A stretch of DNA of 64,000 nt from contig NIVC01000297.1 in NCBI GenBank assembly GCA_002269645.1, forward strand, positions 248,001 through 312,000, given 5' to 3'. The translations under genes and the position numbers were made by a program. Under the pieces are notes generated by a model. It saw only the letters and a program-made list of their open reading frames with translations. It did no database searches and had not been told where the DNA came from. Below, piece after piece: positions 366-21,609 of the stretch (positions within the stretch are counted from its first letter, which is position 1; each line of letters starts with the position of its first letter). The DNA is from Macrostomum lignano. Lineage: Eukaryota.

Positions 366-429
366 AGTAGTATTATTAAATTACACGCACCCCACATTTT
401 TACATGTAAAAATGAATATAGTCCCCACC
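366..429 (+). repeat. Left terminal inverted repeat of the Polinton
   Basis: agtagtattattaaattacacgcaccccacatttttacatgtaaaaatgaatatagtccccacc matches the reverse complement of 20608-20671 at 61 of 64 positions. Confidence 0.9.
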
Positions 430-683
430 TACACTCGAACTGTAATACGCCTCCGTCAGTTCGAGCTAACGAACGAAACGCAACTCGCCCAAGCCGGCGT
501 TCGATAAGGTACAAATCTTAGCTTTCTTATCTTAATACGACACACTAACCAACACTAGCGTTCTCCCAAAAGAAATATTGAATTCAAAGTCCAATTCTTC
601 CTTAGCCTTGGCCATTTATTTCTGCAAAGTATATTTGACTGAATTCGCCGCAAGTCCATACGCATTAAAAACGAGTAAGCAAA

Positions 684-1235
684 TTACCGCAATCTAATAC
701 GCAGATAGTTCATCGCGAAAGAACGCAAACGATTATAACAGCGCTTAAACAGATTCTCGGCGCCACCACCACTAATCATGCTCGCTAGAAAATCCTTCAA
801 ACCACCACCACGATGCAGTTTAAAGTATAAATAAAACAAAACCCATATACCACAGTGCAGACTTGTTGGTTCTTGAATAGCAAAACGCGAATATTCCCAA
901 TTTCCCCCTCCACAATTCCGTATAAACCACCGACGTATTAACTCACATGGATTTAACCCCAAGGAATCGAAATACTCTCCCTTCCTAGAGCCCCTCCTAC
1001 CCAACCTAAAACCCCCCACCCATAACAAAACCCAATGAGAACCCGGCAAATTTGAAGTATCGGTATTCACGATCAGAAAATAATGCCTTCTGTCTCTCGG
1101 GATTCGCGGGATACTACTCAACAAATCGACAGGAAAAATACCCAAAAAACAAACGTCTTTAAAACCGTTACATAGAATAATCACAACACGTTGCAAGAAC
1201 AAGTTCGTTACACCTTCGCCTCGCCTCATTTCCAA
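684..1235 (-). CDS. Adenain-like (C5) maturation cysteine protease
   Basis: VNTDTSNLPGSHWV (His), YFDSLG (Asp) and QEPTSLHCG (Gln/Cys) motifs. Confidence 0.9.
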   Translation of the reverse strand: MEMRRGEGVTNLFLQRVVIILCNGFKDVCFLGIFPVDLLSSIPRIPRDRRHYFLIVNTDTSNLPGSHWVLLWVGGFRLGRRGSRKGEYFDSLGLNPCELIRRWFIRNCGGGNWEYSRFAIQEPTSLHCGIWVLFYLYFKLHRGGGLKDFLASMISGGGAENLFKRCYNRLRSFAMNYLRIRLR

Positions 1236-2548: not shown

Positions 2549-2941
2549 CTACTTGCCAAACAAACTGAATAACTTTTTAGTCGTGGCGCTCGGCTTTTTC
2601 TTTTTACGTATGCGTCTAACTCGCCGACCACGTCCAACCTGTTTTTTTACCGCAGGTGTCTTTCTGCTTATACCCTTTTTCCTGACTCGTCGTCGCTTAA
2701 CCACAACTGGTCCATCAGTAGTCGTCAATCTACGTTTCTTACCCATTCCAATCGTCTTCTTCAGGAAGCTTAAACCGCCCTCTACTAAATCCTTCCGAGC
2801 TCTACGTAGCACGGGATATATCACTCTCTCTGTTAAATTCGTCAAATATCCGTATCCCTCGTACACAGGTATCGAACTCGACCCACCACCCGTCCGCGGC
2901 TGTGTACTAGGTCCCGAATAGAATGCAAAAACCGGATCCAT
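2549..2941 (-). CDS. Basic virion core protein (adenovirus pVII-like)
   Basis: 130 aa, very Arg/Lys-rich C-terminal half, xxGG putative protease sites (RTGG, VEGG); its stop TAG directly abuts the MCP ATG. Confidence 0.6.
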   Translation of the reverse strand: MDPVFAFYSGPSTQPRTGGGSSSIPVYEGYGYLTNLTERVIYPVLRRARKDLVEGGLSFLKKTIGMGKKRRLTTTDGPVVVKRRRVRKKGISRKTPAVKKQVGRGRRVRRIRKKKKPSATTKKLFSLFGK

Positions 2942-2970
2942 GAATGCCGAGCGAAACTATACGTCAAAAT

Positions 2971-4112
2971 CTACTTAAAGTGCTTTGCTAATACCCGTGC
3001 TGTCTCTTTATCTAGATCTGATTCAGCCAACCACTGACCTCTCGAGTCGGGCATTCCCTCCCACTTGACAAAATATCGCCTGCCCTTCTTCCCCATACGC
3101 TCAACACGCTCGACCCGATCAATTTTAACAACCTCCGCCTCAGGTTCAGCCACTAGAAGCAGTTCACCTTGGTTGAATCGACCCTCCAACACTGTCGAAT
3201 CGTCCTCGGGTCTAACAGACCATAAGACGGTGGCTTCGTAGAATACACCCGATGAATTCGATACACCCTATTACTCCATGTCGTTGTGTAACCCTTCTCA
3301 AATTTTCCCTTTTGACGTGCAAGTCGTACCCAATCACCAACCTTAAAACGCGGAATAGGCCTCACATCGTCGCCATACAACTCCTCCCACACCATGCCCT
3401 GCAGATGGCCATCCGCACTCACATCAATGGGGCTACGACCATTTAAACTGCGGTGTGGAGAGTTATTCAACGCAAGCTCTAATTTTGGTAGAACATCAAA
3501 CCACCGGGCCAGATTTCGAGTCCGAAATAGTCGTAGTAATCGCTCCTTCACGGTGCGTATCAATCGCTCAGCCATGCTCGCTTTGTAGGTACTCTGACTT
3601 ACGAAAAATCGTACGCCCTCACGCTTTAACATCGACTGAGTTTCTCGCCCAAGAAACTCTCGACCAGCATCGCCTTGTAAGTACAGCGGTTTAAACCCCG
3701 TGCGGAATATCTCATACAATACACGGCTCACCTCACTTGGCTTCTTCGTCTTCAAAGCTCTCAAGCGAGCCAACCTAGTGAAACAGTCGACTAATACGAG
3801 GATGTACCTGTAACCACGGTTTTCGTCCTGATATTGCGGTAAGTCTGCCAAATCAATCTGCATTTGAAATTTTGCAACGGGCGGTAGTTGTATTTTCGGA
3901 GTTTTGAACTTCCGATTCGACTTCTGGAACAGATGTATCTCCTTCGTCCTACGCACCCACTTGTCAACAACAGCCTTGGCTTTTTTTTGCGTTAACTCCG
4001 GATACCTCCGCCTCAAAACTCGTATAAATTGCTTCTTATTGCCACTAAACGCAGTAGGGCGTTCCAAGTCGAAAAATGCCACGTCCAGAAACTTAAAAAA
4101 AATCGCTTCCAT
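2971..4112 (-). CDS. Retroviral-type (rve) integrase with C-terminal chromodomain; one frameshift near 3200
   Basis: QIDLADL / LQGDAGREF / MAERLIRTVKE DDE motifs in ORF 3153-4112; chromodomain YFVKWEGMPDSRGQWLAESDL in overlapping ORF 2971-3192. Confidence 0.92.
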
Positions 4113-4139
4113 CCTCCGTATTAGCGACTCTCCAAATTT

Positions 4140-4313
4140 TTATGATGCAGAACCCACATTAGTATTGCAACAGTTAAAACTTGCCTTTACCGTTACGTCT
4201 CCGTCAGGCTCCTCTGCGCGCAGTACGCGTTCCAATAAATTCGCAATGCAACCACCCTCCCCCAAAAAACAAATTCTAAAACGCTTGTACAACCACTGAA
4301 ACACATTCGCCAT
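4140..4313 (-). CDS. Small hypothetical Polinton protein (57 aa)
   Basis: Hand-translated MANVFQWLYKRFRICFLGEGGCIANLLERVLRAEEPDGDVTVKASFNCCNTNVGSAS; fills the gap between two packed genes on the same strand. Confidence 0.35.
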   Translation of the reverse strand: MANVFQWLYKRFRICFLGEGGCIANLLERVLRAEEPDGDVTVKASFNCCNTNVGSAS

Positions 4314-4361
4314 CCCCAGACTCGATATATTTCACGTAAAATACAATGCTTATACATTACG

Positions 4362-5027
4362 CTAGAGTCTCATAATCTTCCAAGGCTTGCAAGTCCCCAC
4401 CGCGCGACTCTGACTCGGAGTAGGTTCCATGGGTGTTCCTTCCTCCAGAACGTTTCGCATATGCCGCCCTAGCATCGACGGTGGAATTGATTCCCTGCGA
4501 AGCAGTGAGACGAAACGTTCCAGCTCTGCCGCCGGAGGCGATCTCCCTCGTTTCAATGGTTGGTCGCGAGTGACATACTCTACTAGCTCGTCAAAATCTC
4601 CTCCTCCAATCTCATTCGCAGCACCTGTCAGCCTTGCCTTCAGACGGTCGAAACGTGGTTGTACATTACGGGGGAGTCGCCTCCCCTTCTCGGTCTCACC
4701 CTCCGTCGGGCCATCATGACCAACGGATGAGCGAACCTCTGGCGGGGTCTCACCATTCTTATTGTACAGAGACCGCGTTTGTAGCAACCGACTCTCCAAA
4801 TCAGTTCTTTCCAACTGTGCGGTTGTAGGCTGCAGACTAGTCGATTCACCAATCTCCCGGTCAAGCCTATTCATCTCACCTTGCATTTCAACAATATTCT
4901 TACCCAAAGCGTCCACAGGTCCGTCCAATACTCCCGTCCTTCGCTCATCTTTCGACGTACATTCCAAATAAGCCTGCAACGGCAGCAAAACCATTCGCTG
5001 AAGAGTTCCTCCTCTATTGACTGGCAT
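4362..5027 (-). CDS. Hypothetical Polinton protein (221 aa)
   Basis: Intact ORF packed 1 nt after the upstream stop in the structural cassette; no motif recognised. Confidence 0.6.
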   Translation of the reverse strand: MPVNRGGTLQRMVLLPLQAYLECTSKDERRTGVLDGPVDALGKNIVEMQGEMNRLDREIGESTSLQPTTAQLERTDLESRLLQTRSLYNKNGETPPEVRSSVGHDGPTEGETEKGRRLPRNVQPRFDRLKARLTGAANEIGGGDFDELVEYVTRDQPLKRGRSPPAAELERFVSLLRRESIPPSMLGRHMRNVLEEGTPMEPTPSQSRAVGTCKPWKIMRL

Positions 5028-5028
5028 A

Positions 5029-5466
5029 TTACCTACGCCGTCCGGCCCGAATTGCTCGAACTAGATTTGCCGTCCCCGCAGCCGTACCGGCCAATCCCGA
5101 TGTAATCCCTAGAGCCGTGCCAATGGCTGGCAAAGCAGAAATTATCGGAGCAAGAAACGGCAGGAAACCACCACGCTGTACCAAAATTTCCTTCCTGGCT
5201 CTAGTTGATTTTTTCTCCTTCAACAATTCTTGTATCGGTTTCCGATAGCGTTCTAAACGTTTCTTGTCACACGACTTTAACGGCACGCGTCCTTTTACGA
5301 TATTCAAAAGAAACTCAACCAGGCAACGCACCTCGCCCGGACTTAAACTTCGCAGAAATCGCTTGCGCTGGTCCAATCCCCGAAGCCTCGCGACAACTTG
5401 CAATAGGAAGGCACACTGGGACAATGATCGCGCGCTTTGTACGCTCTTTTCTGTCAGCCCGGTCAT
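5029..5466 (-). CDS. Conserved small Polinton virion protein with QRGG-FL site followed by a hydrophobic/amphipathic segment
   Basis: ILVQRGGFLPFLAPIISALPAIGTALG; this QxGGFL architecture is common in animal Polintons. Confidence 0.7.
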   Translation of the reverse strand: MTGLTEKSVQSARSLSQCAFLLQVVARLRGLDQRKRFLRSLSPGEVRCLVEFLLNIVKGRVPLKSCDKKRLERYRKPIQELLKEKKSTRARKEILVQRGGFLPFLAPIISALPAIGTALGITSGLAGTAAGTANLVRAIRAGRRR

Positions 5467-5510
5467 TGTCTATCATGCCTTCTACTGATTCCGACTGTAC
5501 TTGCTTATAA

Positions 5511-6467
5511 TCAATCGTCTCGTACCCTGAAGTGCAGCACAGCAATCACATGGCTTCCATCAGGGAAATTCAAATCTTGCCCCCGTTGGTCGGCCAGACG
5601 AATGGAGATCTCATTAATGTAGCTCCGATTTGTCCGCAAGTAATATGGCGTCTGCAAAGCATTTCCGTCTCGTCGAAATATTCCGTTCTTTTCCTGGCGA
5701 AACTCAACCACGCGAAGTAGCGGAACCTGACGACTTCCAACCATTTGATATTCAACAATGTCGCTATAGCAGTACATGTAAACACTCCGCAGTATCGCTT
5801 CGGGTATTCTATCCAAATAGACCTTCGTCAGACCCCACGCACGATTTTTCCTCCAATACTCAACCACCTCCTTTAACGTATCCCCGGCAGGCCGTATTAC
5901 CTGCGTACTCTTCATCCAGACGGCGAAACCAGGTTCCAAGACAGCACGAAAATCGTACCAATTCGAATCTAATATACCTGCCTCGTCCATTGCATTCGTT
6001 ATGTTCGTCCAGGATTCACCCGCCGCATCCGCGGGTTGGGTGCGTCCGTCGTGAGCTGTCAAACCCCACGTACTGAAACCAAAGCATGTCAAAAAACTCC
6101 TTGGCAGTTCAATGCCCATACGTCGGCTGCCGGAATTTCGCAAATACCAAACATATGCTTTAGTAGCCGGCGTCCACGACAAGTGTACCTCCAAATCATC
6201 GGCCTGCCAGACCTTACCCAAGAAGACTTCATCTGTTTTCTCGATAATTTTCTCGATGTTGCAATAATATATCACCTTCACCTCTTCTCGAAGTTCCGCC
6301 GAGGAAGTTTCCGCCGGCGGGCTGTTACATAGCAAATCCACCAAAGCCACTTCATACTTCCCAGCCGGCGCTAGATTCAATGGTGTAGTTAGCCGCACCC
6401 GAAACTCGTGCGCAGAATTGGTCGGATAACTACGATCGTTTGACGGAATAAACACAAAGAAACTCAT
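5511..6467 (-). CDS. Minor capsid protein (penton, single jelly-roll)
   Basis: N-terminal FxxxxPSN...PTNSAHEFRVRLTTPLNL...YEVAL and C-terminal YSDIVEYQMVG...LLRVV...ISIRLADQRG...VLHFR motifs. Confidence 0.8.
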   Translation of the reverse strand: MSFFVFIPSNDRSYPTNSAHEFRVRLTTPLNLAPAGKYEVALVDLLCNSPPAETSSAELREEVKVIYYCNIEKIIEKTDEVFLGKVWQADDLEVHLSWTPATKAYVWYLRNSGSRRMGIELPRSFLTCFGFSTWGLTAHDGRTQPADAAGESWTNITNAMDEAGILDSNWYDFRAVLEPGFAVWMKSTQVIRPAGDTLKEVVEYWRKNRAWGLTKVYLDRIPEAILRSVYMYCYSDIVEYQMVGSRQVPLLRVVEFRQEKNGIFRRDGNALQTPYYLRTNRSYINEISIRLADQRGQDLNFPDGSHVIAVLHFRVRDD

Positions 6468-6497
6468 AATCTCACCCCATAAGCTGTAGCCGCTTCC

Positions 6498-7219
6498 TCA
6501 AAACTTGCTTATAATATCCTCCTCCTTGATAGTCTCCGGACGCATATAAACAACCTGGTGAGTGTCACTCGGAAAGACATTCGTCCGTATGCGTATCATA
6601 TCCGGCGTGTCCTGTCGTAAGTCTATGAAGAGATAGCTGAAGGCCTTGTCACCCGTCGCGTCGTCATAAGCCTGCACCAGAAATCTACTAGCTCGGGGTA
6701 CATCTGCCGACCCAAATGTTCAACGGCGCTACGATCCCTAACATTTCGGCTTAAACAGATATAACTCGTCGATAAACTTCTTTTTCTTGCCTCAGGATCC
6801 GCAGGGTCAAACAAATTTTGGCACAAATAAAGACAAGTCAATGGCGTATGATGAGCCAATTTGGTGAATACAGCGGTAAAAGCGCGTTGCTTTGCAACTT
6901 CACCCTGCAAATCATCAACAACGACTAAATCGTGCGGCTTGAATCTAGCCAACAACTGATCGGGGAATCCCTGTACGAAGTGACATTCGCCACTTCCACC
7001 CAATGTCCAACATTCTCGAACTCGTTTTTCCTCAGACGAATGTAACTCTGTACCGTGACACCAAATTAGACGCCTTGGTACTACTCGAAACAGACCCAAG
7101 CGCTCCCTTACCAGTCGAAGCACCCATTCAGTCTTTCCCGAATTCGAAGGACCTGCGACGATAAACGTCGAGTCATGAGCAAATCGCAAGTCGAATGTAC
7201 GCCTGTCCATTCTAGGCAC
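6498..7219 (-). CDS. FtsK/A32-like genome-packaging ATPase; one frameshift near 6690
   Basis: Walker A GPSNSGKT, Walker B VVVDDL, HH...QNLF motif; the shifted frame continues AYDDATGDKAFSYLFIDLRQDTPDMIRIRTNVF to a stop at 6498-6500. Confidence 0.9.
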
Positions 7220-7633
7220 CCAAACGCTGTTTTACGTTCATAACACGGGATACCAGTTTTGCGGCCAAACGTTCCCCCCACTTAGTTGTAGGATCCGCAG
7301 CAATCTCTCGAGCTCCTGCTTCGAGTTGTTGATCGGCCTTTGAACGCTCTGCCACGTCCGAGTGCTTCTCGTATGCCAGGTCGTGTAAGAGACACAATTT
7401 ATCGAGCCGATTCTTCCCAGTATCGCCCCGCGCTAAACGTTCTCTCAATCTGGTCCCGGGCCGCAGAATTGGTAACCCCCCGGCAAATGAAGCTCCCCTG
7501 GGAGATGATTTATTACCCAATTAACAATACCAAACCCCGTCTGACCTCGACGACGAGATTTCTTAGCTCGAGTCGACTTTGCTGCTGTCGAACGCACTCG
7601 CTTCTTCTTCTTCTGTCGGCCTTGTGTTCCCAT
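7212..7633 (-). CDS. Parvovirus VP1u-type phospholipase A2 (PLA2X); one frameshift near 7455
   Basis: ELHLPGGYQFCGPG (Ca-binding loop) then TRLRERLARGDTGKNRLDKLCLLHDLAY (HD catalytic dyad); basic N-terminus. Confidence 0.85.
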
Positions 7634-7778
7634 CCACTTAATTGTACCAAAAGAACCAATTGCATTTGCTTATACACACAGTGGTTAAATCCACGAGCAG
7701 TATATTGTATTAATAATCAAAGTGACAAGCCGCCACCAATTCCCACCACCGACCGACGGGCTCCGGGCGTGACCAGCA

Positions 7779-8394
7779 TCACATGTTAGTGCTGCCCATG
7801 CCACCCGTCTCGCGAACCGCCACCGGCTCCGGTTGTCGGTGCCACACCCCCGGCAGCTGGCCCTCGCGAGCTCGACCGACTTCTACCGGGGGCGTGACGC
7901 AGCGCTCCAGAATCAATTGGGCCACGCTGGTGGCACACGACAGATGAACTTTCTCATCTGACGTGTTGTGCAGGATCACGCGGAGTTCCCCGGTATAGTC
8001 CGGGTCAACCACGCCACCCTGCACATTTAGGCCTCGGTTGGCCCAACTGGACCGGCTCGCTATCCGACCATAGGTGCCGGCGGCAGCATCACCCGGAGGC
8101 CGGTGCGAATGATGGCCGTGTCAAAGGCCTCCACAGTGCGGTCTTCGCACGTGGCTAGGTCGTAGCCCACCGACCCGGCCGTAGCTCGCGAGGCATCACT
8201 GCCCCGGCATCCGTGAGCACTACGCGCAGCGGGACCGTCGAGCAAGAGTCGGAGCTCATAGTGGCTGCGGGATCATAGTTCATCTTATGCTTAGGAGGTT
8301 CTTCGTCCTCTAAAATAAGTCTAGTACTACCCGCGTAATCCTCGTCCCAATCAAAAAAACTAAGCCTAGTACTAATCCCCTGCACTGCCATCAT
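7779..8394 (-). CDS. dut: dUTPase; two frameshifts (~8175, ~8075)
   Basis: Motifs across the shifted frames: SVGYDL, GRIASRSS, GGVVDPDYTGE, VAQLI, RETGGMGST. Confidence 0.85.
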
Positions 8395-8519
8395 AGGCCT
8401 AGAAAAACGAAGAGAAAGAAGGAAAGGCGGATTCTTGCATATACATTCGATAATTGCGCGCATATATTGTGTGCAGAAAAAGCATAAACAGACAGAAAAC
8501 AGAGAGCGGAGAGAACAAG

Positions 8520-11500
8520 TCAAGTCAACCGCCAATGACCAAATGGGAGGGATGAGTAGGGATCGAGCCAGGCTCGCTTCGTGTCGAAGAAGCTAAGCGC
8601 CTGCTTGCGCTGCTCAAGAAGATAAATCTTCTGTCGTCGCGAAGTAATCGTCCGCATCGTTACATGCTCCAAAACTCGATCCTTCAACACACTCAAAAAT
8701 ACATTGTGCTTCATACCTCTTACAATCGACTTCGACACGCCCTTGCAACGCACAATCTGACAGAGGCTTTCCTTTGCATACACCATTGAATAGTTTTTCG
8801 GGCGTAGAAATGCAAACTCCAACAGTGTACAACCGGAAACTTCATCTTTCCAGGCCATTAACTTCCCTTTATACTTTGTTGTATAAAGCGGATGAGAAGG
8901 TGGATAATTACTAGTGTCTAACACACCGCACTCCACCAAGTCTTTAAACAATGTCTCCTGAGGACTCGTCTCCGGGTCGGCCATAACCAATGCCAGGATC
9001 AAACTATCCGTATCTCCACCAAGCACGCGGCAGAAGCAAGCGACCTATGGCATTGAATCCTTGAATAGAAAAACTCGTAGACAAATGTTTTCGCAAGGTC
9101 CAGAATAGCGCTACCAATCAGAATTGGCTTGTTTAGCAATACTCGACGAGGAGTCAAACTCACGCCCGCTAGACGATCTGTATACAGAATCACGTCCATA
9201 AACTCCTCTTTAGCGACATACGTTTCCAACTTCTCGGCAGTAGTACACATGCGATAGCTGAGTCGGTCTCGAACTCGCTGCAGAAACTTGCCGTACACAG
9301 CATTGTTCAATAGTTTAAAGAAATCTCGATCGAAATCGCTAGTCGCCTCAGACCGCCGACGAATATTATGTTCAATATATTCCTGTAGAATAGGACCTTC
9401 TACGAATTCGAGAACACGATTAACCCGCGTCACGCGCATGCCTAACTCGAGGTAAAGACGCAATGCTCGATGATGTACAATGTACCCTGTTTTATGCGTA
9501 ACAGAGCCAATTAGTTTCCTTGTCGGAGAAGTGAATCGTTTTACGTCCTCGTATACCTCCGCATTCCTCTTCCTGGGATCAAGCTGGCGTTGCAGACAAA
9601 CCCAATCCTGCTTCATATGCTCGGTTAAATAGGCACTATCAATTCTTTCATGGCCAATAGCCAGAGGTAGATCGGCAGTTGAGTCGTGCAAAAACTTTGG
9701 GTAGTAAAGATCGACATTCAATAACGCCCCTCGTCCATTCGAGCAATAGCTAGACAACCAAGCCAAAAACTTGCTCGACTTGTTCGGATTTTCCAACTCA
9801 GCTGCCTCATCATCAACTGATAGATTTTCAATCACTTCACGGGGCAACCAACGATAGGCCTTATACGGCAGCGCCTGCACCATACAACTGGCATAAAGAG
9901 AATTAGCATCAAGGTAGGCCAAGTGAGTGCCATACGGTGCATTCCGCCGTAGTTCTCTTAAATGTCGTCGTCGTCATCCAGCTGCCGACGCATTCTTCTA
10001 CCATTGGATTATTTGCCGTAGTAAGATGGCGAGTGCCGAAACTGAACCCACCTCGAATCGAAGCTTCAACCTCGGAGTACATACGAGCGTCTGTAAACAA
10101 CTCGATCGGCTTCTTCACCTTCAACAGACACGCAGCCAGACTATACATTGGCGATCCGAGAAAATGACACACATCCAAACCGTATTCTCGAATTGCAGTG
10201 CGACGAAAACTCTCAAATACGTCGCATAACAGTAGTACATCCAACAGTAAATACGCAGTCAGATAGTCACGCAAATTGGCACAATCAAACTCTTGCCAAC
10301 TCTGCTGAGCGCGTGTGTACTCCTCCTTAGAACACTCTTGCCGGGTCATTGCGTCGTAAAACAAATCTCGCGATGGCAGTTCAGTCACACTGTCCAACTT
10401 CTCTTCAGAGTCCAAGTAACAATACGGAAACACTCCCTTCTGCTGCAGAGTAGACAGTTGGAGTTTAGGATAAACATTCAGCAAATCTCGACAGTGTACC
10501 AATTGTTCCTGCGTCAAACGGTTTGCCAGACTAGCTAGACTTGTCGACAAGTACGCAAAACGTGTCCTTGAAGCAGATTCAAACCNNNNNNNNNNNNNNN
10601 NNNNNNNNNNNNNNNNNNNNNNNNNNNNNNNNNNNNNNNNNNNNNNNNNNNNNNNNNNNNNNNNNNNNNNNNNNNNNNNNNNNNNNNNNNNNNNNNNNNN
10701 GCCAGACTAGCTAGACTTGTCGACAAGTACGCAAACGTGTCCTTGAAGCAGATTTCAAACCAAACAAAATTCTTCTTCTTCTGCTTTTGTTGCTGCGGCC
10801 GTTGACTGCCAACCAGCAGCGGTACCTTGAACTTTAATGAAAACGTCTTAAACCGTTCCCTAGACTCGGGAAGAACGTGCAGTTGAACGTCGTCTTCTCC
10901 ACTAAACACATTGTACACCTCACGAACAATTATTTTACCGTCATATCCTCGAAGATTGTGCAGGTAGACGATAATTCGATAGCGCTGCAGGGCAAGTTTT
11001 CGATTGCACGACATGCAAGCCATTCCACGTGGAAGACCACTCAAATGACAATGATCCCAGACTTGAGACTCGTCAGCGGAAAACTCGCGACGACAGACGT
11101 AGCATCGATCTGCGCTAGGACGCTGACCTAGATACTTTCTAAGCATTGGTCTATAAGTCATCTTGCTAGTCGCATTAGTTACTTCGAATGCAAGCTCGCG
11201 CAGAGCCAAGAGAAACCTGCCAATACAATCTGTTGTGCCAGGCGTAGAATAAAACAACTTGCATGGAGTATTGTATCTGCTCAACAAATCCTCCCTCGTT
11301 ACACTATCCAAATCCGGATCGACAACCAAACGAAAGGCCACACAAACGGGCACGTGAATTTGTAAAACACGGCTGTTAGCCGTAGGCACTGGCAGGCCCT
11401 TGACGAGGCCCCTCGATGCCTTTTCAACAGGTACAAGTAGACTCTCAATATCAGCATAAACCAAATACAGCGGCGGCAGTCGAGTCTCGTAGGCTGAAAA

Positions 11501-13142
11501 AGACAAAAGCTTTGCCCTCCTCTGGTAAAACCTCCTCCGTGACTGGCTTTGGCGTTCGAATGAAGCCGCCGCCGCCGCCGCCGCCTGGTTGCTCCTCCGT
11601 CGTCTGGCCACACACGTGTTCTTTCAAGATATAATCCCAAGACGTGGTGTGAATAAAGCTCGCCAGACATTCAGGACAATAGCGCCGGCGTTTAGCACGA
11701 GAACTCAACAGCCTATCCAGATTTAGCACCGCCATGTAGTGTCCATACTTGAATTCTGCGTAAGGTGGTATGAACAGACAATTGACTGGCGCAAGGTCAC
11801 CAGTGGAACGACGAAAATTAAAAAACAGCACGGCAGTATTCGTGGCATGACTCCAGACAAACACACGCATCAGTCTAATTCGAGGGTTCAGCCGGCAAAA
11901 CTTTCTGTAGCTCCCAATTGAGTGACGAGTCACTCCGGCGCGCGTAAATCGAAAGCTTTTCAGCCAAGGCCTGTAAGACGCCTTTCGCCTTTTACGGGCT
12001 TGCCCTTCGACCTGTGAGGAAAAGACGCTCGACACGACAGCATACATAAAACAATCATGCTGATCTGCTCGGTGCGGGCGTAGAAACAAAACCGCTCCCG
12101 GCATACGACCAACAGCCAGTGGAACGCGGAATGGAACGGAACGGGTCGGAGCGGATTCTGTTGGACCGCCGCCCGCCTGCGCGCCCGCCGCCGCCGCCGC
12201 CGCCACGCCCGCCGCCACCACCACCGCCGCCCCGCCACCCGCTCCCCACACGTCCTGCTGCTGTTGCCGACGACTGCTAGTGTTCGACTGTAGTAGTAGA
12301 TATTTTCGGCGGAATATGCACAGCATAACGTCGACCTTGACAACGCCGAGGAACTTCCAGTTACTACCTCGGGACTGAAAGTTGTCTAATTTAGCTACCA
12401 GATCGTTTGTTGCCTCGCTGTACCATTGGTTGAAAACGTCCTCAGAGAGAAGAAGTACACGGCGGCCGGCGGCTGGAGCATTCGCATCGAAGGAGACCAT
12501 AACGACTTTGGAATTGAAAAAGGGCGCGATTACTTCTACCTCTTCGTTGTGGGGGGATTCACCAACAGCCGTGTCATTGGCGGGGGGATAACGAGTACGA
12601 TACATTTTTACATTAAGATGTATACATGTACGGAGTAAACAGTCCGCAGATCCGAGAGAGTTAAAAAGACGAAAAAGTGGAACTTGCAGTTGTGGAAGTA
12701 ACTCGCTGGGTGGTTCGGTCTCGCCATCGTCCTCGTCCAGCAGAGGCGTGAACGTCAGAAAGTTCGCCCGACCTCGGTGTGCGGACTCGGTATGTTGTAC
12801 CGACCAGCCTGGTGGAGTGTCCTCTTCGATTAGCCGACGCACTGGTTCTCGAAGTAAAAGTTGGTCTGGTTGATAGCACGAGCCATTGTGCGAGTGCCCA
12901 TGGAGGGCGGCTTGACTGTTGAATCTCTGCCGGCACACAGGGCATCTGATTTGTTTCGTCGTCGTCGTCGACGGCTGGAATGGTGTTGGCGATTGTTGGC
13001 GACGGGGTGGTTGTGATAATCGCCTAAATAGTTTGCTCGGTGGCAAAAATAAGGAAGGAATGCACAGCCTTAAGTTTGGTGGACAGTCCGAAAATGTCCT
13101 CCGCCGCGTGGTTAAACTGTATTTTACTTTGCAGAGATACAA
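8520..13142 (-). CDS. polB: Protein-primed family B DNA polymerase (pPolB) with N-terminal terminal-protein region; split by several frameshifts and an N gap
   Basis: In order: FQSRGSNW, GHYMAVLNLDRLL, VYADIESLL (Exo I), DHCHLSG..RG.AC..CN zinc finger, HNLRGYD (Exo II), KGVFPY, YLLLDVLLLCDVFE (Exo III), IRGG, YLDANSLY (A), KLLNNAVYGK (B), GDTDS (C), PKNY, KGV. True start not resolved; the track start is TTG. Confidence 0.93.
10586..10700. other. Assembly gap (115 N) with a 61-bp sequence duplicated on both sides
   Basis: 10525-10585 and 10701-10761 are the same sequence apart from homopolymer lengths (aaaa/aaa, tt/ttt). Confidence 0.95.
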
Positions 13143-13435
13143 TTATGTAGACAATTTGAATATTTAGGAATGAACAGCAGGCTAGTAAGTAGTAGGTCGT
13201 TGATGGTGGTTGAAAGAATAGAATCGTATAACTTAGTCAATGGTAGTGTTTTTAGGGGTCTGAATCAGTTCGAATGGATCATCATGATAAACAAAAATCG
13301 TTGGGTACGCATGGGAATTTTACCTTCAGGTAGTAATAGTGGTAGGTGGTGTTTTTTCAACTTGGTAGGGGCTCGGTTGAATTTAGGTGTTTATCACTAG
13401 AGCAGAAAATCATTGTTGTTAATATCAAGTGCATG

Positions 13436-14818
13436 TCAGAGCTCACGACGAATGATGCCGCCAACAAGATGGGCTAGATCGGTCGTAGATGTATCCGATC
13501 TGATTAGAATTTCGTGTACGTTCGAGTAGTCCTGGTAGTGGCGTGTAAACGCCTCGTCTAGCGACCGTAGATAGTCCAGGGAGATGCCAGTCTCCTCACC
13601 GCTGCGTCCGCGCTGCGCGATGCGTTGAATGGCCAACTCCGGGTCAATGCGCAGGTAAATAAGCGTCGTGTTCGCGCCGGTAAAGGGTACCCCAGTCGCT
13701 TCGAGGACGTCTAGTTGGCGCTGAGCAATCGCCCATTCGGTGTCAGACAGCGAGCCTTGACGGTGTAGTACGTCTTGGAATGCTCGAGCCGACCCGAGGC
13801 AGCGGTCGAGGATAACCACCTTGTTGTTGGATTGTTGGTTAACCTCATTCCGGACCTGGGTGGTAACACAAGATTGGCAAAAGTAGCTATACCGTGCGTG
13901 TCTTTCGACATTGGTTGTACATGTAGTAGGAGCTATACGAAAGGAATTACTAGATACTATAGTACCACTTACTTTGCTGTCTCTGTCGAGCAAGTCGTGG
14001 GAGACGTGCTGTTGGAATGCGACGGCCGGAAGCTCGCCTCGATAGAATGACTGAAGCAGATTTACCGAGTCCGGGAGGAGCGGGTGTCGCGCGTACTGGT
14101 GAACAGGCTCGGGACCGAAGACGGCTTTGTCGGCCCAACCCTCGAGGCGGGAGGTGAGAGCCAGTTCTCGAAGCAACGTCGACTTCCCGGCACCGATTAC
14201 GCCCTCCAGGAGAAAAATGCGAGACTGGCTCGTCATATTGGCTAGAATTGGAACAAATTCTGGTTTCGGAGCGGCTTCCTGACACAATTGTTTAACAATG
14301 TTGATCATTTCTAAAATCTGGCTAGTAGTCTTTGCACCTATTATAACGATCTTAAGGGAATGAAAAATATTGCACACCGTCCTATTGAGTGGAGCAGTAC
14401 TACGGAGGGTGACGGCTTGTGGGAATATCTCCGCGTCGTAATACAGCCGAGCTGTGCGAAAAGGCCCGATAAAGTTTTTCAAGGTCGAAAATTTGAGTCC
14501 AGGATAGTGGAGCAGACCAACGGTTGTAGAGCTGATTATACGAATCGATGTTTTGATTAGTTTAATTACTTTAAGGTGTATGAAATTCAGGGCACGTAGA
14601 AGTTGGACTCGGGATCTACAGCCATAAAGCGTGAGTAGTCCGCCGGGGTAGAACTGACATGAAAATTGGGGCAGTCCGATACGAAGCATACTTGGCTTGG
14701 CGGAGTATAATTTGGAGGGGATTCCCGCCTGGCCTAGACGTTTTTTTAGCCTATTTAAATCTAACTTTTCTCCTGGAGGGGTACTCGTTCTGGCTTGCAC
14801 TATTAGTAGGACCAATCT
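13436..14818 (-). CDS. TBP-like domain in frame with a deoxynucleoside/thymidylate kinase
   Basis: N-terminal ~175 aa shows both TBP repeats (KLDL..., QFYPGGLLTLYGCRS; YDAEIFPQ..., NIFHSLKIVIIGAKT). C-terminal part has P-loop LEGVIGAGKST, EPV, ILDRCLGS, YLRIDPELAIQRIAQRGRSGE and DYLRSL of the dNK family. Confidence 0.85.
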   Translation of the reverse strand, partial: RLVLLIVQARTSTPPGEKLDLNRLKKRLGQAGIPSKLYSAKPSMLRIGLPQFSCQFYPGGLLTLYGCRSRVQLLRALNFIHLKVIKLIKTSIRIISSTTVGLLHYPGLKFSTLKNFIGPFRTARLYYDAEIFPQAVTLRSTAPLNRTVCNIFHSLKIVIIGAKTTSQILEMINIVKQLCQEAAPKPEFVPILANMTSQSRIFLLEGVIGAGKSTLLRELALTSRLEGWADKAVFGPEPVHQYARHPLLPDSVNLLQSFYRGELPAVAFQQHVSHDLLDRDSKVSGTIVSSNSFRIAPTTCTTNVERHARYSYFCQSCVTTQVRNEVNQQSNNKVVILDRCLGSARAFQDVLHRQGSLSDTEWAIAQRQLDVLEATGVPFTGANTTLIYLRIDPELAIQRIAQRGRSGEETGISLDYLRSLDEAFTRHYQDYSNVHEILIRSDTSTTDLAHLVGGIIRREL

Positions 14819-14956
14819 CTGAAAAGAATAAATACGAGAAAAAATTCAGTATAACGGTTAAGATTTTATATATTTCTGGGTGATGCGTTTCCGTTTACGG
14901 AGAATGGTAGTTAGAGTTATAGGTATAGCTTCCCGCCACCAAGTGAACGCTAACGG

Positions 14957-16047
14957 TCACTGTGCGAAGACTTCATCATCTTCGCTGTCCATGGGCTCCG
15001 TCGAGGCCCCCGAGTCCACGTCCCCTAGTGCTGGGTTGGAGGCTGCAGCTTTACCCGCTTTGGGGACAGTATTGGTAGCACCGCTTACAAGATCTTTGAC
15101 GGGAGTCACCGTGATCCAGTCTTCAGCTGCTGCTGCTGTTGTTGCTGCTCCAGTCGTCTTGGTGGGGCGTTTGGCGGGGCTGCGACGAGTTGGGCCTTGT
15201 CGTCGTTTTCGTCCGCTAACTGGTTTCACTAGCGTCGTCGTAGTTGTTGACTCTTCTTCCTCAGTTGCGGCGGTGGCGGCGATTGGAGTCGACGTAGTTG
15301 GGATGTGAAATCGCAAAGCTTGGGCTAGCATCGGCAGGTGTTTCGGGTCGTCGTCGACCAGTGTCAGCGAGCGAAGGGCGAGGCCGAGGCGCCATGTCTT
15401 GCTTTCCTTCTGACGATAAAGACTTGTGAGCTGAACGGAGAGATGGTAAAGACCGCTAAGTCCCCTCAGCTCGCTTGTGTCAACTTCACGTGGGTGTTGA
15501 TTAGGCAGTGCTCGAAAGGTGAAACATGGTAGTGTAGGTTTTATGGCAATCCACTGGGCAAAGCCCAGGTCGCCTTCCTCGGTGGCGCGGGAGATGCGAA
15601 GCAGCGGCATCGGATCGCCCATTTGCTTTAGTTTGATAGCGATGCCTCTTTCGACTTGTCTAGCGAGAGCAAGGGGAATGAAAAGCAGTAAGAATTCATG
15701 GTCTAGTGAGTATGCACATGTAACAAGGATGGCGAATTCTTCAACTTACTTGATGCATTGTAGGAATTTGCTGCAAAAGGCCGATGATGACAGTCCGATG
15801 GCCACCGCCTCACGGTCTCCGGCTAAAAACTCTCCGGCATCCTGTATTTGGACACCACGAAGAATCTCGACTGGGGTCGTGGTTTGAATCACTAGTGGGG
15901 ACCTCCTGTCGACTTTGGGGGCGTCCACGTTACGCTACGGAAGGTGCAGCTTGCTGTAGGAGCGTTGGGTTCGCCTAGGTGGAGATTACCAACGTCGGCT
16001 TGGATAGCACCCGGTTGGAATACGGATTCGGCAGCGAAACCAGCCAT
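14957..16047 (-). CDS. Putative ssDNA-binding protein (T7 gp2.5/NCLDV-SSB-like); intron 15660-15749 and one frameshift near 15920
   Basis: Kozak aacaccATGG at 16047, TATAAAA at ~16138-16144; GTAAGT...pyrimidine tract-CTAG 90-nt intron removes an in-frame TAA and joins QCIK to QVERG; PLVIQT motif, beta-rich core, acidic tail DSEDDEVFAQ. The gene model is better supported than the product call. Confidence 0.55.
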
Positions 16048-16742
16048 GGTGTTGATCTTGCCTTGCTCGGAACGCGTGTTTGAAGTGCCTTCTATTTGGA
16101 GTCTTAATGAAGATTTTATTTCGTTTAGGGGTACCTATTTTATAGAGTTGTTTTTTAAGGGGGGCGTGGGATCGTTGAAGATTGTAGTTGGTCTTCTGGC
16201 TGGTGAATTCCCAGGGACTTTGGACATTTTGTTAAAGAGTTTAGGGTTGGTGAGATGCGATGCAAATATACGTGCGTTAAGAGATAATTTTGGCATTATA
16301 GTAGTGCGTGCAAATCGGTGAATTGATTTGACATGCTATTTAAGTTCACTAATTTGGTGTTCACTAGTGGAATAGGAAATTGATCTCACTCGATGCGTTC
16401 GGGTTATAGTAGGCTAGGGTCGGTGAATTGACTGCATGCATTTCATGGGCGTAAATTGCGTGCTCATTGCTGGATTGATAAAAATTTGGAAATGCCTGCA
16501 CCCTAGTTTGGGTCACGGGTGACGTTTTCCCATAGAGGTCGGTTTGTAGAAAGATACCGAAAGGGGGGTTTTTACTGGCTTCGGCATTGAGTGGTTGGTT
16601 GACAGCGCGGCGCTATCTATATGCTATATGCCGATAACGGAAATTGTGCAATCCCCCGCGTGGGTTGAGTTTCATATGAAGGGGAGATCTAGGTCATTGA
16701 GTTAGAGAGGAGACTTGGAACTGTTCGAACGATAGATTGCGA

Positions 16743-18481
16743 ATGACAATGGCCGAGGCTCAGGACGGATCGCGGGAAGAGTATTGGAAGGCACAGGAGG
16801 GATACTTTGAAGAATTGGAACGCAAATTCGCTTTCGTGGACTACGGTAGCGATCGACTCCGACGAGTGTCGCCCTTGAGTAGACCGTCTGGTAAGTATAG
16901 TTTTTTATGACTGCCACTCCTCTTGTATGGCACCGTATTTTGATAGGGCATCATATACCGACTTCAGTAGACGGGCAGCAAGACCTCCGTCCGGTCGCGG
17001 TAGTTCCGCCTAGTGTGCGTGGCCGCGAGGATCCCTATGACGGGGAAATTACTATAGGGAGGAATACGTTCCCACCAAGGACAGAGGTATGTAATATGCA
17101 TTCTGAGTTCGATTGCTTTGTGGTAGTATAACTTACTATGCCTTCATCTACTGGTAGGATTACTTCAACGCAAGGACGGCAGCTTTGGAGGAGCTACGTG
17201 AGGGGACCCGAGGTTCGCTATCGTGACGCGGGTTACGACGTAAGATTGATTTTTAAGTTAGTAGTGCCTGAGCTTGTACTTGACGAGTTCATTTTGCCTT
17301 TTTTAGCAACTATGCATGAGTGACCGAGTAGTTTTGCAGCACCAGTGGGCGACGGCAGTTTGTACGCGAACGCATGAACTGGTGCCGGAGATGGTGGCTC
17401 GGGGAAGGGAGGTACGAGACAATATTCGTATGCTTTTCTTATCACATATTGCATTAATAAATAAAGAATTTCCATTCTCATTTTAGGAGTTTTTAGCCAT
17501 GGTGAGTGGAGATGTGCTTTTTGGTGTGGTATAATTCACTCGTCCGTATGAAAATAAATTTACTTGTCTGTTCTTTATTCTTGAATCGTAGATTCGCGGA
17601 CGTGGTCGTCGGACTCGAAACGAGGTATGGATATTGTTATTTTAATTGAGTGTGATCCTAGTTCAATATTGTAGCCCAGTTGTATTTTCTGCTGTTGCAT
17701 ATTCCAGGCTGCGTGTGTTTCGTCCAGCCCCACACAGCTTACAATGGTCAGTAGTCGCTTGGCATTGATTAAACATTTAAGATATAAAGGCTGGAATCTT
17801 ATTTGACATTTCAGGCGAATTGCGCGATCGGAGAAGGGCGAGCTCCCGGACCACCGCAGCCATGTGTCCCGGTTAGTGATACATCGAAAACCATGCTCTT
17901 TATTTTGGCGGTATGTACATAAGTAGCTCGGTTTGGGAGGTGCTCTTCACGTGCCGGTTTAAGATGGAGTTACGAGGTTTTATGGTAGTAGAATTCGTGT
18001 TATTTAGTGTGAGACGGGACCGTTAATGCATGAACCAGTTCTACTTTATGCTGCCACGCATTCAAGACTGCATGGCATTGATTAAAACTTGAGGGTGTAA
18101 AACAGTTGAAATCTTATTTTTTTAAATTGCAGACAAATTTCGTGTTCGGACGGGGGCGGACTCCTGGACCGCCGCAACCTTCCACGGTTGGTGTTACGTA
18201 GAAGAATATGCTCTTCTTTGTAGGGTGTTCACAGTCATATCGGGTGGGGGGGGGCAGGTTGGTAGTGGTTTAGGGTGAAATATGCAAGTCTATGGTGGTA
18301 GAGTTTGTGTTACAACAAAGAGTTATTTATACAATCAAATTTCAGATTCCGAAGCCGCCATCCGGAAGTGGATTCCCTGGTGGTGGTAGGGTTAGTAAAT
18401 TTTATATTGATTGCAGCGTAGTAAATTGACCTGGTAAATGTATGTCATCTTCTTTGGTTTCAGGATGCGGACCTGTCGTAG
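16743..18481 (+). CDS. 11-exon gene of unknown function inside the Polinton (~244 aa)
   Basis: Exons 16743-16890, 16947-17086, 17158-17239, 17307-17411, 17487-17501, 17592-17624, 17708-17746, 17815-17871, 18133-18186, 18346-18390, 18464-18481. All ten introns are GT-AG and the frame is maintained if one extra G is removed from the G-run near 17203. Confidence 0.72.
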
Positions 18482-19448
18482 GCATTCGGGACTCGGCGTG
18501 TGGGTTGGTTGACTCCGTCGCCGCCGTCGGCTTGTTTATGTGGACTGTAGGGGACTTGTATTTGTAAATGTTTCGTATGCGACTTTTATTCAGTGAAGGC
18601 TTGGACATATGTGTCTATTTATTCTTTTGGATTCGCTCTGTGTGCAGTATCGTACATGTAAATACAGTGTGGCGTAGATCCAAGGCCTTCGTTCGATGTA
18701 AGGGCTTGCCAGCGGGGTGTCTGTCTTGTTGTGTCATCGGTGGAAATATAGCGTTGTTAAAGGATAGGTTTGGATCTTGTTTGTCTTAGGGCTAAAGAGA
18801 GGGGTGATAAACTCGGGGTTTGAGTTTTCGGTGGTGTGGTTAGTTCTAGGGCTTCTGGGGTGGGGGGTCTGTATTATGGGGTCTGGTTTATCTCAAGTGG
18901 GGGGTGAAGCATGGGGGTGGGAGTCGAATCACCCCGGGGGAATCTTAACGCGGCAATATTTTTTAAATCGCATGTAATTTGCTTTAGTTCTTTAAATTCA
19001 ACTTTTATTCAATTTTATTTTATTTACTTGTTAAAAACTTTTAATACACAAATATACCGGTTCGTCAATGAATGTATTAAAACTTGTAGTGCTAAAATAC
19101 ACGGATTCGATGTTGGTTGAAGTAGCTACTGAAGCCGGCGTTCAATCGAGAGGGCGGATAAGGTAAACAAAAGTGCAAGATATGCATATGTAGATGCCGC
19201 GGAGACGGATGAAAAGTAACAGAAAATATGCGAAAAAGTATAAGTACGAATATGAGTGGTTGGTATCGAGGTTTTGAGTTCTATGGGTAAAATATTGAAG
19301 CCTAGTGACGGTCCCCCTGGTTCTAATCTGTACTACATAAAAATGGAAAATACTATCCTGATCCTAAAATTGTAGACGTTTCGAGAAGTTTAACAATACA
19401 GCATAATAATGTTTGTTAGCAGGTAGGCGAGTACACTTAATGGCGGAT

Positions 19449-20030
19449 TCAGTCAATCAACACGGCCGTGGACGATAGTGGAAAGGTCGGCATGGACGGC
19501 GAGCGTGGTGTTGAGGTCCATGTTGGGGCAGCACGGCGGTTTGGGTTCGGTCCGGGTGAAGGTGTTTCGGTGCTGACTCTGCAAATAAGAGCGGAATGCT
19601 TCGGTAGTTGGGGGCCATGTTTCGGATAATGATTAGAATTTACTTACGTCTGAGTGGCTTGAGAATACTCTTGGCTACGGAAGTCATTCGGACGGCGGGA
19701 CTCGGGAGAGCGGATGCGTTTGTAGCAGTGGTGAAGCAAAGCGAGCACCAGGAACAGAAAAATAATTAGAAAAACGACCTTCAGGGCCACCAGTTGCGCA
19801 CTTGCTAGGTTGATTAGTTTGTTGACGCTTTCTCCGATTGCAGTAAACATTTGGGTATTATTGTATGCCTGGACGGCTATACGATTTCGGAGCTCTTCTT
19901 GGGAGTAATGGGAATTCTCGGATAATTGTCTGACAACTGCCGAAAGTTGTCTGGTAGTTTCCGCGTTGTTTTGGGTGGCTTGGGCCTGTTTAATAAACAC
20001 AGCCAGTATTTTTTGTAGTCGGTTCGCCAT
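19449..20030 (-). CDS. Two-exon single-pass membrane protein (~170 aa) inside the Polinton
   Basis: Exon 20030-19648, intron 19647-19579 (GTAAGT...TTTGCAG), exon 19578-19449 in frame; TM segment VALKVVFLIIFLFLVLALL followed by HHCYKRIR; AATAAA downstream near 19000-19025. Confidence 0.65.
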
Positions 20031-20607
20031 TAAGATGGTTATACGAGACTCGGTGAACTAATAAACTTGCCAGACTATTCACTCGAGAATCCGACTTGAC
20101 GCCGTTTTTAGCGCTTGCGTCTAGAAGTTTGTATCTGTTCAAACCCTCAAGTCGTGGGGAGGGGTGGGGGTGGGGGGTACAAGTTGTGCGCGGGTGGTTG
20201 ATGAGAATCGGATTTTAATCGATTAATGTGGCGGGGTGGGTGTACATTTCGCTGTGTGCGCCCTAGCGTTTGGGGTAAGGTCTTTTCTCGGAAATGTAGC
20301 ACTTATGGTCCGGCGGGAACGGAGTATGGATCGTAGAGTTGGTATAGAATGCAAGTGGTTTATTTACGGAGCAAGTGGTTATTATAATCTTCGCAATATC
20401 TATTACTGGAAATGGCGCAGGCCGCGCTCGTGAGTAGTGTTGCCTAAGGCCGAGTAAAGCGTATACCTTATCGTGCGTTTAACACGGTTTCGGAATTTGA
20501 AGTGCTTGGTGAATAGTCTGTTGGTTTCCACCTACTCGGGTGCGACTGCGAGTATAAGATAAGTAGGGGTACGATTTGTAGGCGGCTCGCTTGAGCGGGT
20601 TAGGACG

Positions 20608-20671
20608 GGTGGGGACTGTATTCATTTTTACATGTAAAAATGAGGGGTGCGTGTAATTTTATAATACTACT
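20608..20671 (-). repeat. Right terminal inverted repeat of the Polinton
   Basis: Ends in ...ataatactact; inverted copy of 366-429 with 3 mismatches. Confidence 0.9.
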
Positions 20672-21609
20672 AACGGTACTTCTCAATTCACGGTTTTGAA
20701 AGGCCTTCTATTGTATTAAGTGTCTAAAACCTAAAATAATCAATTAATTGTTTACTAATGTAAATCTATTGATATGCGCACAGCAACTACTGACAACTAT
20801 TCCAGCAGTAGTATGATTAGGAATCGTTTGCGTGTCTTACAATGTATATTTGGAATTAATTTACTAGAATTAATGACATTTTCAACAACAGAAACTGCTG
20901 ATTGCTGATTTCAAGCAGTCGCTGTAAAATTATTCTATATCTGCGTGGCTTCTGTTAGTCAATCAATCACTCAATCAATCAGTTCATTAAATTCTAGTCG
21001 GACAAATATCTCCACAGTTATCGTTTTTTTTAAACGATCGAACACTTTTTATTGTTTTTATGGTAATAAATCTGTCTGTTACCTGTGTTACGAGTATTTA
21101 TTGCTGGTTACTCTAGACCCTGACCTCAGTGGCCCAATCAGCAAGTAACTATTGAGGTATATATTTATATATTATGTTTTTTCTAATTCAAATATTTTGC
21201 TTATTGTCTTGCTTGACAAGCACATGTACCAAAATATTATTGACAATGTCCTGTCTATGGTTTTTCTATAGTTTCTCTGATTAGGAATCTCAAACCTGTT
21301 TTTTATCATATTTTAAATGCTTTGTCTTCAACACAATATTTTGCTTTTGTTGTTGCAGACTGTTGCTTGACTAATCTGTTTCCTTCTTCTTTCTCTGTAT
21401 GTTGTGCTTTGCTTTTTGGTGAGTTAGCGTCTGTCGGAACTGCAACGTGCGACTTTCGATGTGCTATTTGGTCTACGCCCTCTCTCGTCTCTCTTCTCCC
21501 GTCTCTCCTCTCTCTTCTCCTCTCTCTCCTCTCTCTCCTCTCCTCTCTCTCCTCTCTCTTCTCCCCCTCTCCTCTCTCTTCTCCCCTCTCTCCTCTCTCT
21601 CCTCTTCTT

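Follow-up and report, generated by a model that had tools for sequence, protein, structure and literature searches.

What does a protein with the fold of the TATA-binding protein (TBP) do in a mobile element, and does the deoxynucleoside kinase (dNK) that follows it in the same reading frame belong to it? Both questions arise from a minus-strand frame at 13436-14845, open over 469 codons, in a 64-kb stretch of Macrostomum lignano DNA (the window; contig NIVC01000297.1, positions 248,001 to 312,000). The first-pass annotation of this DNA had read the frame as a Polinton-encoded TBP-like factor fused to a dNK. Here, we show that the TBP-like gene is a divergent, selected, and Polinton-wide gene of these elements. 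It lacks an ATG, is likely spliced in frame onto an upstream gene for a putative single-stranded DNA-binding protein (SSB), and likely provides a late transcription factor for host RNA polymerase II. We give this combined reading a probability of about 0.58.

The host element

The frame belongs to a Polinton/Maverick element (Table 1), in which AGTAGT begins both terminal inverted repeats, giving the AGT ends typical of this class. A 6-bp target-site duplication was seen at a sister element (C889), and none at the window copy or at the C362 element. Pfam detected both PF03175 (protein-primed DNA polymerase B, pPolB) and PF00665 (rve integrase), the latter at E 3e-7, just under the cut-off. All main genes lie on one strand in the order SSB, TBP-like, dNK, pPolB, ATPase, capsid-type genes, integrase, and protease, where the capsid and protease labels are our assignments from size, order, and motifs. 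The element shares its core genes and terminal repeats with known Polintons, Mavericks, and adintoviruses. For splicing, runs X1, X2, and X4, which come from three studies and whose RNA type is not stated on record, were treated as RNA-like because GT-AG joints were present there and absent from X15, which was treated as DNA-like.

Table 1. Positions of the features discussed, in window coordinates
Feature	Position	Strand	Remarks
Polinton/Maverick element	362..20675	-	~20.3 kb; ~65-bp terminal inverted repeats at 362-429 and 20608-20675
Canonical TATAAAA box	16138..16144	-	~95 nt before SSB start
Putative SSB exon 1	15750..16047	-	about 100 codons, phase 2; frameshifted near 15916 in window copy
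Putative SSB intron 1	15660..15749	-	90 nt, GT-AG; joint 15659/15750 in 2/3 RNA-like runs, 0/1 DNA-like
Putative SSB exon 2	14957..15659	-	rest of predicted OB-fold ssDNA-binding domain; basic/acidic low-complexity tail
Phase-0 splice donor in SSB tail	15083..15091	-	after Leu, before Val-Ser; GTRAGY; cut between 15089 and 15088; 6/6 lineages
Polypyrimidine tract and AG acceptor	14819..14843	-	AG at 14820-14819, abuts first TBP codon
ATG-less TBP-like exon	14237..14818	-	194 codons including linker; two-repeat saddle fold
dNK acceptor and ATG	14234..14243	-	AG 14243-14242, ATG 14236-14234
dNK exon 1	13973..14236	-	88 codons; P-loop, EP motif, FQ
dNK intron	13856..13972	-	117 nt, in frame, stop-free; absent from sister families (gap in alignment A7)
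dNK exon 2	13436..13855	-	DR motif, Arg-rich lid; stop 13436-13438
pPolB region and endonuclease-VII-like domain	8520..13142	-	several frames, N gap in window copy
Late block	684..7210	-	Pfam for integrase, pX, ATPase
TATAAGC upstream of ATPase gene	7668..7674	-	word search
ATPase gene	6623-7210	-	Pox_A32 E 0.03, below cut-off
TATAAGC upstream of minor-capsid-like gene	6507..6513	-	word search
Minor-capsid-like gene	5511-6467	-	no Pfam match
TATAAGC upstream of pX-bearing core gene	5503..5509	-	word search
pX-bearing core gene	5029-5466	-	Adeno_PX, below cut-off
TATAAGC upstream of integrase gene	4348..4354	-	word search
Integrase gene	3153-4112	-	rve (PF00665)
TATAAGC upstream of major-capsid-like gene	2666..2672	-	word search
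Major-capsid-like gene	1226-2548	-	no Pfam match
Putative protease gene	684-1229	-	no Pfam match

Further transcription units were observed. A separate multi-exon transcript lies on the plus strand inside the element (16560-18800), with six GT-AG joints in X1/X2 and none in the DNA-like run; its exons are short, coding-like, and frameshifted in the window copy. Near the left terminus, a small minus-strand gene (19579-20030) with a membrane segment predicted by eye and no Pfam match contains a 69-nt intron spliced in 3/3 RNA-like runs. What we take to be a gag-like retrotransposon frame (1-517) overlaps the right end of the element, and a 664-aa frame (61853-63847) lies close to the end of the window.

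A TBP fold with an altered DNA-binding face

PF00352 (TBP) scored 26.2 bits (E 7e-6), above its cut-off of 22.9 bits, and the family profile matched solved TBPs with E-values down to 2e-9. An AlphaFold model of the TBP part (pLDDT 88.3), built from an alignment (A1) of seven natural copies from the M. lignano genome, matched solved TBPs with E 3e-10 and a TM score of 0.74 to human TBP. Profile and structure searches alike returned TBP matches, and the annotated arrangement, a TBP fold and a dNK (E 7e-24) in one stop-free frame with a Met at the junction (14236), was found as described.

Canonical TBP has Phe at all four intercalating positions, whereas the window protein has Pro, Tyr, Phe, and Phe, and Leu and Ser replace the central Asn pair. 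The alignments bear out the annotated retention of the second-repeat Phe pair (74/75 and 72/75 in the clade), loss of the first-repeat RF Phe, here Pro, and replacement of both Asn; the change of the other first-repeat Phe to Tyr had been missed. Across this wider clade (n = 75), the second stirrup Glu is also kept in 74 and the first Phe is Pro in 66. The first central Asn is retained in 53 of the 75, and both are gone in the window subfamily, a loss that could weaken DNA binding. The C-terminal stirrup of TBP contacts TFIIB, according to PMC10005294. An acidic stirrup of this kind is present at the sequence level, its Asp/Glu pair being invariant in 7/7 copies in A1. Overall, the C-terminal repeat (Phe pair, Pro, stirrup acids) is conserved as in cellular TBP, with which the protein shares the two-repeat saddle fold, and the N-terminal repeat, including its stirrup, is remodelled. 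Identity to the host TBP core is 17%. The protein also differs from TRF2/TBPL1: the host TRF2-like protein has lost three of the Phe, while the Polinton protein has lost one and kept three aromatics. A dN/dS of about 0.15 between two families indicates purifying selection on the TBP-like gene. Prediction of a complex between the TBP-like domain and pieces of host TFIIB gave no answer (score 0.02).

TBP-like genes are widespread in Polintons

The annotation did not know TBP as a standard Polinton gene. This view did not hold, since the gene was found in many Polinton groups, both in the M. lignano genome and in metagenomes. The genome contains at least 150 PF00352 matches, most of them outside the host TBP and TRF2-like loci, and 17 of 20 sampled loci adjoin pPolB, ATPase, or capsid genes. 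When 1.84 billion representatives were searched with a profile, 148 matches were obtained; in a quick tree that omitted one row, 58 of them group with the window family and are set off from cellular-type TBPs (SH-aLRT 94). Among the 25 metagenome loci of at least 4 kb, out of 67 found, 17 carry Polinton core genes, 5 encode archaeal-type TBPs, and in 3 no core gene was seen. Narrower searches gave less: none of 88 candidates scored in a single-sequence homologue search with the TBP part, and scans of viral contigs with alignments A1 and A4 yielded no confirmed match.

A careful tree rejected a clade of the window subfamily with host TBP (p-AU 0.019), and the host TRF2-like protein grouped with cellular rows. 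A single origin of Polinton TBPs may be compatible with this tree (66/89), which has long branches and in which unnamed rows and two short contigs were labelled by us.

A "TBP" label appears in the legend to Fig. 5 of Starrett et al. 2021 (PMC8502044) for one or more MELD viruses or related elements. We found no mention of TBP in the accessible portions of PMC11161782, PMC10748475, and 10.64898/2026.06.19.733378 or in the text supplements of PMC8502044 and PMC10748475. Our search of openly readable text turned up no work devoted to Polinton TBPs or to their late promoters, and nothing on an SSB neighbour, spliced start, or late promoter words of a Polinton TBP; picture maps, Repbase reports, and subscription papers may mention such a gene.

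The in-frame junction with the kinase is likely incidental

The dNK itself matches PF01712, and the P-loop, EP, FQ, D/E-R, and Arg lid motifs, to which we assigned the usual roles, look intact (alignment A7); a sister dNK matches insect dNK structures (E 1e-7). It would be conceivable that the fusion with TBP is a selected unit which, for instance, delivers nucleotides at viral promoters or at sites of replication. The junction is indeed in frame and stop-free in 7/7 other near-identical copies, and none of the nine listed letter differences of RNA runs inside the frame makes a stop (239 further differences were found over the stretch). The whole TBP-dNK frame is open in only two of these seven copies, and four are frameshifted.

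A wider comparison argues strongly against a selected unit. A protein search of the M. lignano genome found 73 places, down to 28% identity, and 20 loci were sampled: 11 hold both TBP and dNK, 8 have no dNK, and 1 has lost the junction. A stop-free in-frame junction occurs in 0/11 of the sister-family loci with both genes; a stop precedes the dNK in eight (three of them degenerate copies), and three have an out-of-frame overlap. A stop between the domains in sister copies is what the annotation had named as evidence against its fusion. Each family examined has a separate ATG for dNK, preceded by an AG, and gene models include a stand-alone dNK, recorded for one family (PAA57108.1), and a transcript that skips TBP. 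In reads, which the annotation had proposed to check, the listed differences leave the fusion stop-free, and 117 nt of the frame are an intron, removed in 3/3 RNA-like runs and retained in the DNA-like run. Profile searches of protein representatives did not find an annotated SSB-TBP or TBP-dNK protein, and none of 7998 candidates in a search with A1 scored as a longer fused form, both weak negatives. We therefore regard a selected fusion as very unlikely and its status as a conserved trait as largely refuted; likely, the fusion is a missing stop in one family. Since no stop separates TBP and dNK in the window family, any TBP product there would also carry dNK (~710 aa with SSB).

Two further candidates were rejected: the protein P0017 as a second TBP-dNK fusion (probability 2%) and frameshifting that would carry ribosomes over from TBP to dNK in sister families, where the offset is +1 and no common slippery site was seen by eye.

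The upstream gene is likely a viral SSB

The gene upstream of TBP gave no match in Pfam or PDB sequence searches. Its language-model look-alikes were NCLDV clusters with DUF2738/DUF5871/Pox_I3 on 10-17% of members (0.92-0.95). A structure model of low quality (pLDDT 46.5) found African swine fever virus (ASFV) CP312R as the best of 48,161 chains (Z 7.9, rmsd 4.4, 158 aligned), a Z score that falls in the range of chance best matches. T7 gp2.5 (Z 4.7), Enc34 SSB, DUF2815, BALF2, and ICP8 also ranked at the top, and 7 of the top 8 structure rows were ssDNA-binding proteins or the related DUF2815. BFVD matches of the model were uncharacterised NCLDV proteins. CP312R is described as an SSB in PMC9963768. 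A literature search for DUF2738 returned no paper. From these models, the upstream gene is likely a viral SSB, with T7 gp2.5/NCLDV-type SSBs (ASFV CP312R, DUF2738, poxvirus I3) as its first-ranked likeness, at low confidence. It differs from them in being split by an intron, in holding an internal donor for downstream exons, and in lacking a sequence-level match.

Two possible routes to a start codon for TBP

No ATG precedes the TBP domain; the first in-frame ATG (14689) lies inside it. A start at this ATG behind a TATA-like word (14864-14872) was rejected because the first strand and helix would be lost, the Met is structurally invariant, and the word is absent in other families. The AG acceptor abutting the domain occupies the same codon position, in phase 0, in 6/6 lineages, and 15-20 of its 22 bases are pyrimidines. 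Synonymous sites among these six lineages are near saturation (pS 0.63-0.85).

A partner for this acceptor is found in the SSB tail. The donor GTRAGY at Leu-Val-Ser is conserved in 6/6 otherwise unalignable tails. With donors included, AGY makes up 36/105 Ser codons and GTR 22/37 Val codons, and the product to the sixth power is 7e-5 if the lineages are independent. A dNK-less sister family retains the donor as well. Joining donor to TBP keeps the frame in 6/6 lineages, although the match of donor and acceptor frame counts as one inherited event and not as six, while joining donor to dNK leads to a stop after 2, 1, 25, or 0 codons, or is in frame in 1/5. The donor is used by three gene models (P0168, P0161, and P0172), and according to PMC5730564, Mlig gene models are guided by RNA-seq. 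One annotated protein, PAA86571.1, assigned by a copy-specific residue to the C273 copy, leaves the genome at the donor, and its last two residues can be matched to no acceptor other than that of dNK, 934 nt further downstream. Alternative 3' splicing from the SSB donor is thus backed by one model, and we infer an SSB-TBP product from frame and conservation.

Several observations count against the SSB-TBP splice. The PAA86571.1 model leaves out TBP, whose acceptor AG the C273 copy preserves, contigs of two RNA-like runs are unbroken from the SSB tail across TBP, and no joint into 14819 is listed in the three RNA-like runs, where contigs drop minor forms. On balance, we slightly favour a cis splice onto SSB as the source of the TBP start. 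The SSB-donor-to-dNK splice puts the SSB stop over the dNK ATG (14241-14233), a possible stop-restart, and the same overlap is seen in L047.

A host leader might also supply the start, a possible though less probable route that is not exclusive with the cis splice. In the form of this alternative that we weighed, the late factor would be the same, the early transcript would be cut after SSB, and a host spliced leader ending in AUG would be attached at 14818, so that TBP is made by itself (here as TBP-dNK, ~420 aa). According to PMC8629364, the leader of M. lignano has ATG at its end, trans-splicing affects 30% of the genes, and YTNCAG ranks first among acceptor motifs; a flatworm leader ATG is able to supply a start according to PMC12582326. 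The sequence of leader end plus donor is present 30 times in the M. lignano genome (control 0). The TBP acceptor is in phase 0, fits YTNCAG in 5/6 lineages, and lies 124-489 nt past the SSB stop with an AATAAA in 2/6 lineages, and other Polinton TBPs have their own Met near the same position, with no SSB detected beside them. However, this route leaves the conserved SSB-tail donor unexplained, AATAAA is missing in four of the six lineages, and no leader loose end falls at 14819 among 24 of 64 loose ends. PMC8629364 also cites Conrad 1993 for the rule that an acceptor is cis-spliced when a donor lies upstream in cis. We consider this alternative less probable but a strong rival, and the cis splice may coexist with it.

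A lineage-specific word precedes late genes

A TATA-type word lies ahead of SSB in 6/6 families, and the TATAAAA box of the window element is the likely promoter of an early unit SSB-TBP-dNK-pPolB. A different word, TATAAGC, occurs five times in the element, always on the coding strand and once for each late gene so marked in Table 1, and is absent from the early block. Five occurrences in the late half compare with a shuffled mean of 0.28, and 0/500 shuffles reached five. The word is found in sense in 14/15 upstream regions and never in antisense, and over six lineages it fills 28/30 late-gene slots, its distance to the gene ranging from 13 to about 1,300 nt. An 8-letter word was not enriched over the whole window (2 seen, 1.8 expected); the signal lies in position and strand.

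Other TBP-carrying Polintons of this host show other words: by eye, a second group has TTAAGA/ATAAGA before most late genes (2 elements), and a third has CTATAAATA (3 elements). A scan of metagenomic elements gave no single shared word, and most show no common word. A search for a TBP-less Polinton as control found none, the TBP-like gene being present in 5/5 other elements checked. The late word is a correlation and, on this basis, a predicted promoter element. In a second-group element, a 24-bp tandem array (L077:32-660) with 16 occurrences of TATAAGC precedes the pPolB region.

The two repeats of TBP divide the box between them, the C-terminal one reading its 5' half and the N-terminal one its 3' half. 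A conserved C-terminal and a remodelled N-terminal repeat therefore fit a word that keeps TATA and has a changed 3' end.

A herpesvirus-like late factor?

The annotation took the TBPs of NCLDVs as its reference. Viral TBP folds exist there, and NCLDV TBP-like proteins (e.g., from Heterosigma akashiwo virus, or ASFV B263R-like) are the best BFVD matches (E 3e-10 to 1e-6), yet identity to them is 6-20%, and the Polinton is a 20-kb, integrating element with spliceosomal introns. Most NCLDVs with TBP-like proteins carry their own polymerase. Phycodnaviruses mostly lack one, according to PMC5294985. By analogy, the better comparison is most likely the TBP mimic of beta/gamma-herpesviruses (KSHV ORF24, EBV BcRF1), likewise a viral TBP-fold protein of a virus that uses host RNA polymerase II; the Polinton protein likely works in a similar way without being one of these mimics. 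In these herpesviruses, late genes have a non-canonical TATA-like word and early genes a canonical TATA (10.1101/728139, PMC12529657). The window element resembles them, as far as the sequence alone can tell, in having TATAAGC before late genes and none in the early block. The word itself differs, being TATT in herpesviruses. ORF24 acts in a six-protein complex, with all four Phe kept and the acidic TFIIB residues absent according to PMC12529657, whereas the Polinton protein is a bare domain of ~185 aa with an acidic stirrup and Pro for the first Phe. Families of the six-protein herpesvirus activator were not found among 18 frames scanned, and the Polinton protein has no evident partner complex.

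The early block lies behind a canonical TATA box, contains spliceosomal introns, and has separate acceptors before TBP and dNK. We propose that host TBP would drive the early unit of SSB, TBP-like, dNK, and pPolB, and that alternative 3' splicing would yield SSB as the major product, SSB-TBP as a minor one, and a dNK message. The TBP-like domain, with its kept C-terminal and remodelled N-terminal repeat, might then bind TATAAGC, and TFIIB and polymerase II would be recruited to capsid, packaging, and integrase genes. Such a late-factor role appears to us quite probable. Of the annotated proposal, a viral TBP that could redirect or compete with host TFIID, possibly with altered specificity, the divergence and the altered DNA face stand, now joined by purifying selection and a matching late word, and the dNK fusion as a unit does not. 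Far more tentatively, SSB-TBP might ride on displaced single strands and fire TATAAGC only on replicating genomes, each Polinton lineage having co-evolved its own TBP and word in one host.

The same protein might instead be a decoy or host modulator that keeps the TFIIB stirrup, has poor DNA binding, and turns down host or early transcription, with late promoters read by host TBP or TRF2. Loss of both central Asn and one Phe would suit such a role, and TATAAGC is perhaps near enough to TATA for host TBP to read. Two observations make a decoy improbable: clade members retain three of the four aromatic positions as well as the Pro, while the host TRF2-like protein keeps one Phe, and late words differ between TBP lineages within one host that has one host TBP. 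A decayed capture of a host TBP gene with no present role could account for the missing ATG and for the frameshifts in 4/7 copies. We consider it refuted by the low dN/dS, by the at least 23 copies of identical score that one family contains, by the rejected grouping with host TBP, and by the relatives in metagenomic Polintons.

For a late factor, the element TBP and its lineage-specific late words would make a concrete early/late circuit that bears on the timing of Polinton capsid genes and on whether these elements behave as real viruses, and a far simpler circuit than one built on the six-protein herpesvirus complex. Three TBP/word pairs in one genome offer a natural series on how TBP specificity changes, in a host for which transgenesis is established (PMC8629364). 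Either source of the missing start codon would be unusual: an SSB-TBP splice fusion, if true, couples late transcription with replication, and a start taken from the host leader AUG, if true, makes a virus gene dependent on trans-splicing.

Sister families

The most numerous sister family (L046/L170-L171, e.g., C593:60735-71983; 23 or more identical-scoring copies) is without dNK and most of pPolB and retains SSB, TBP, the donor, and the late block; it is likely a non-autonomous, recently spread derivative. Shorter derivatives (L052, L058, and L059) have a pPolB fragment joined to the end of a capsid gene and keep degenerate TBP and dNK. Elements of the third group (C4 [L195-L197], C261, and C1395) measure 10-14 kb, have 6-7-bp target-site duplications and a very divergent TBP-like gene, and lack the long polymerase frame in two of three. 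In the second group (L077-L094), TBP-like proteins are near-identical in the first repeat and vary strongly between copies in the second, which suggests recombination or diversifying selection.
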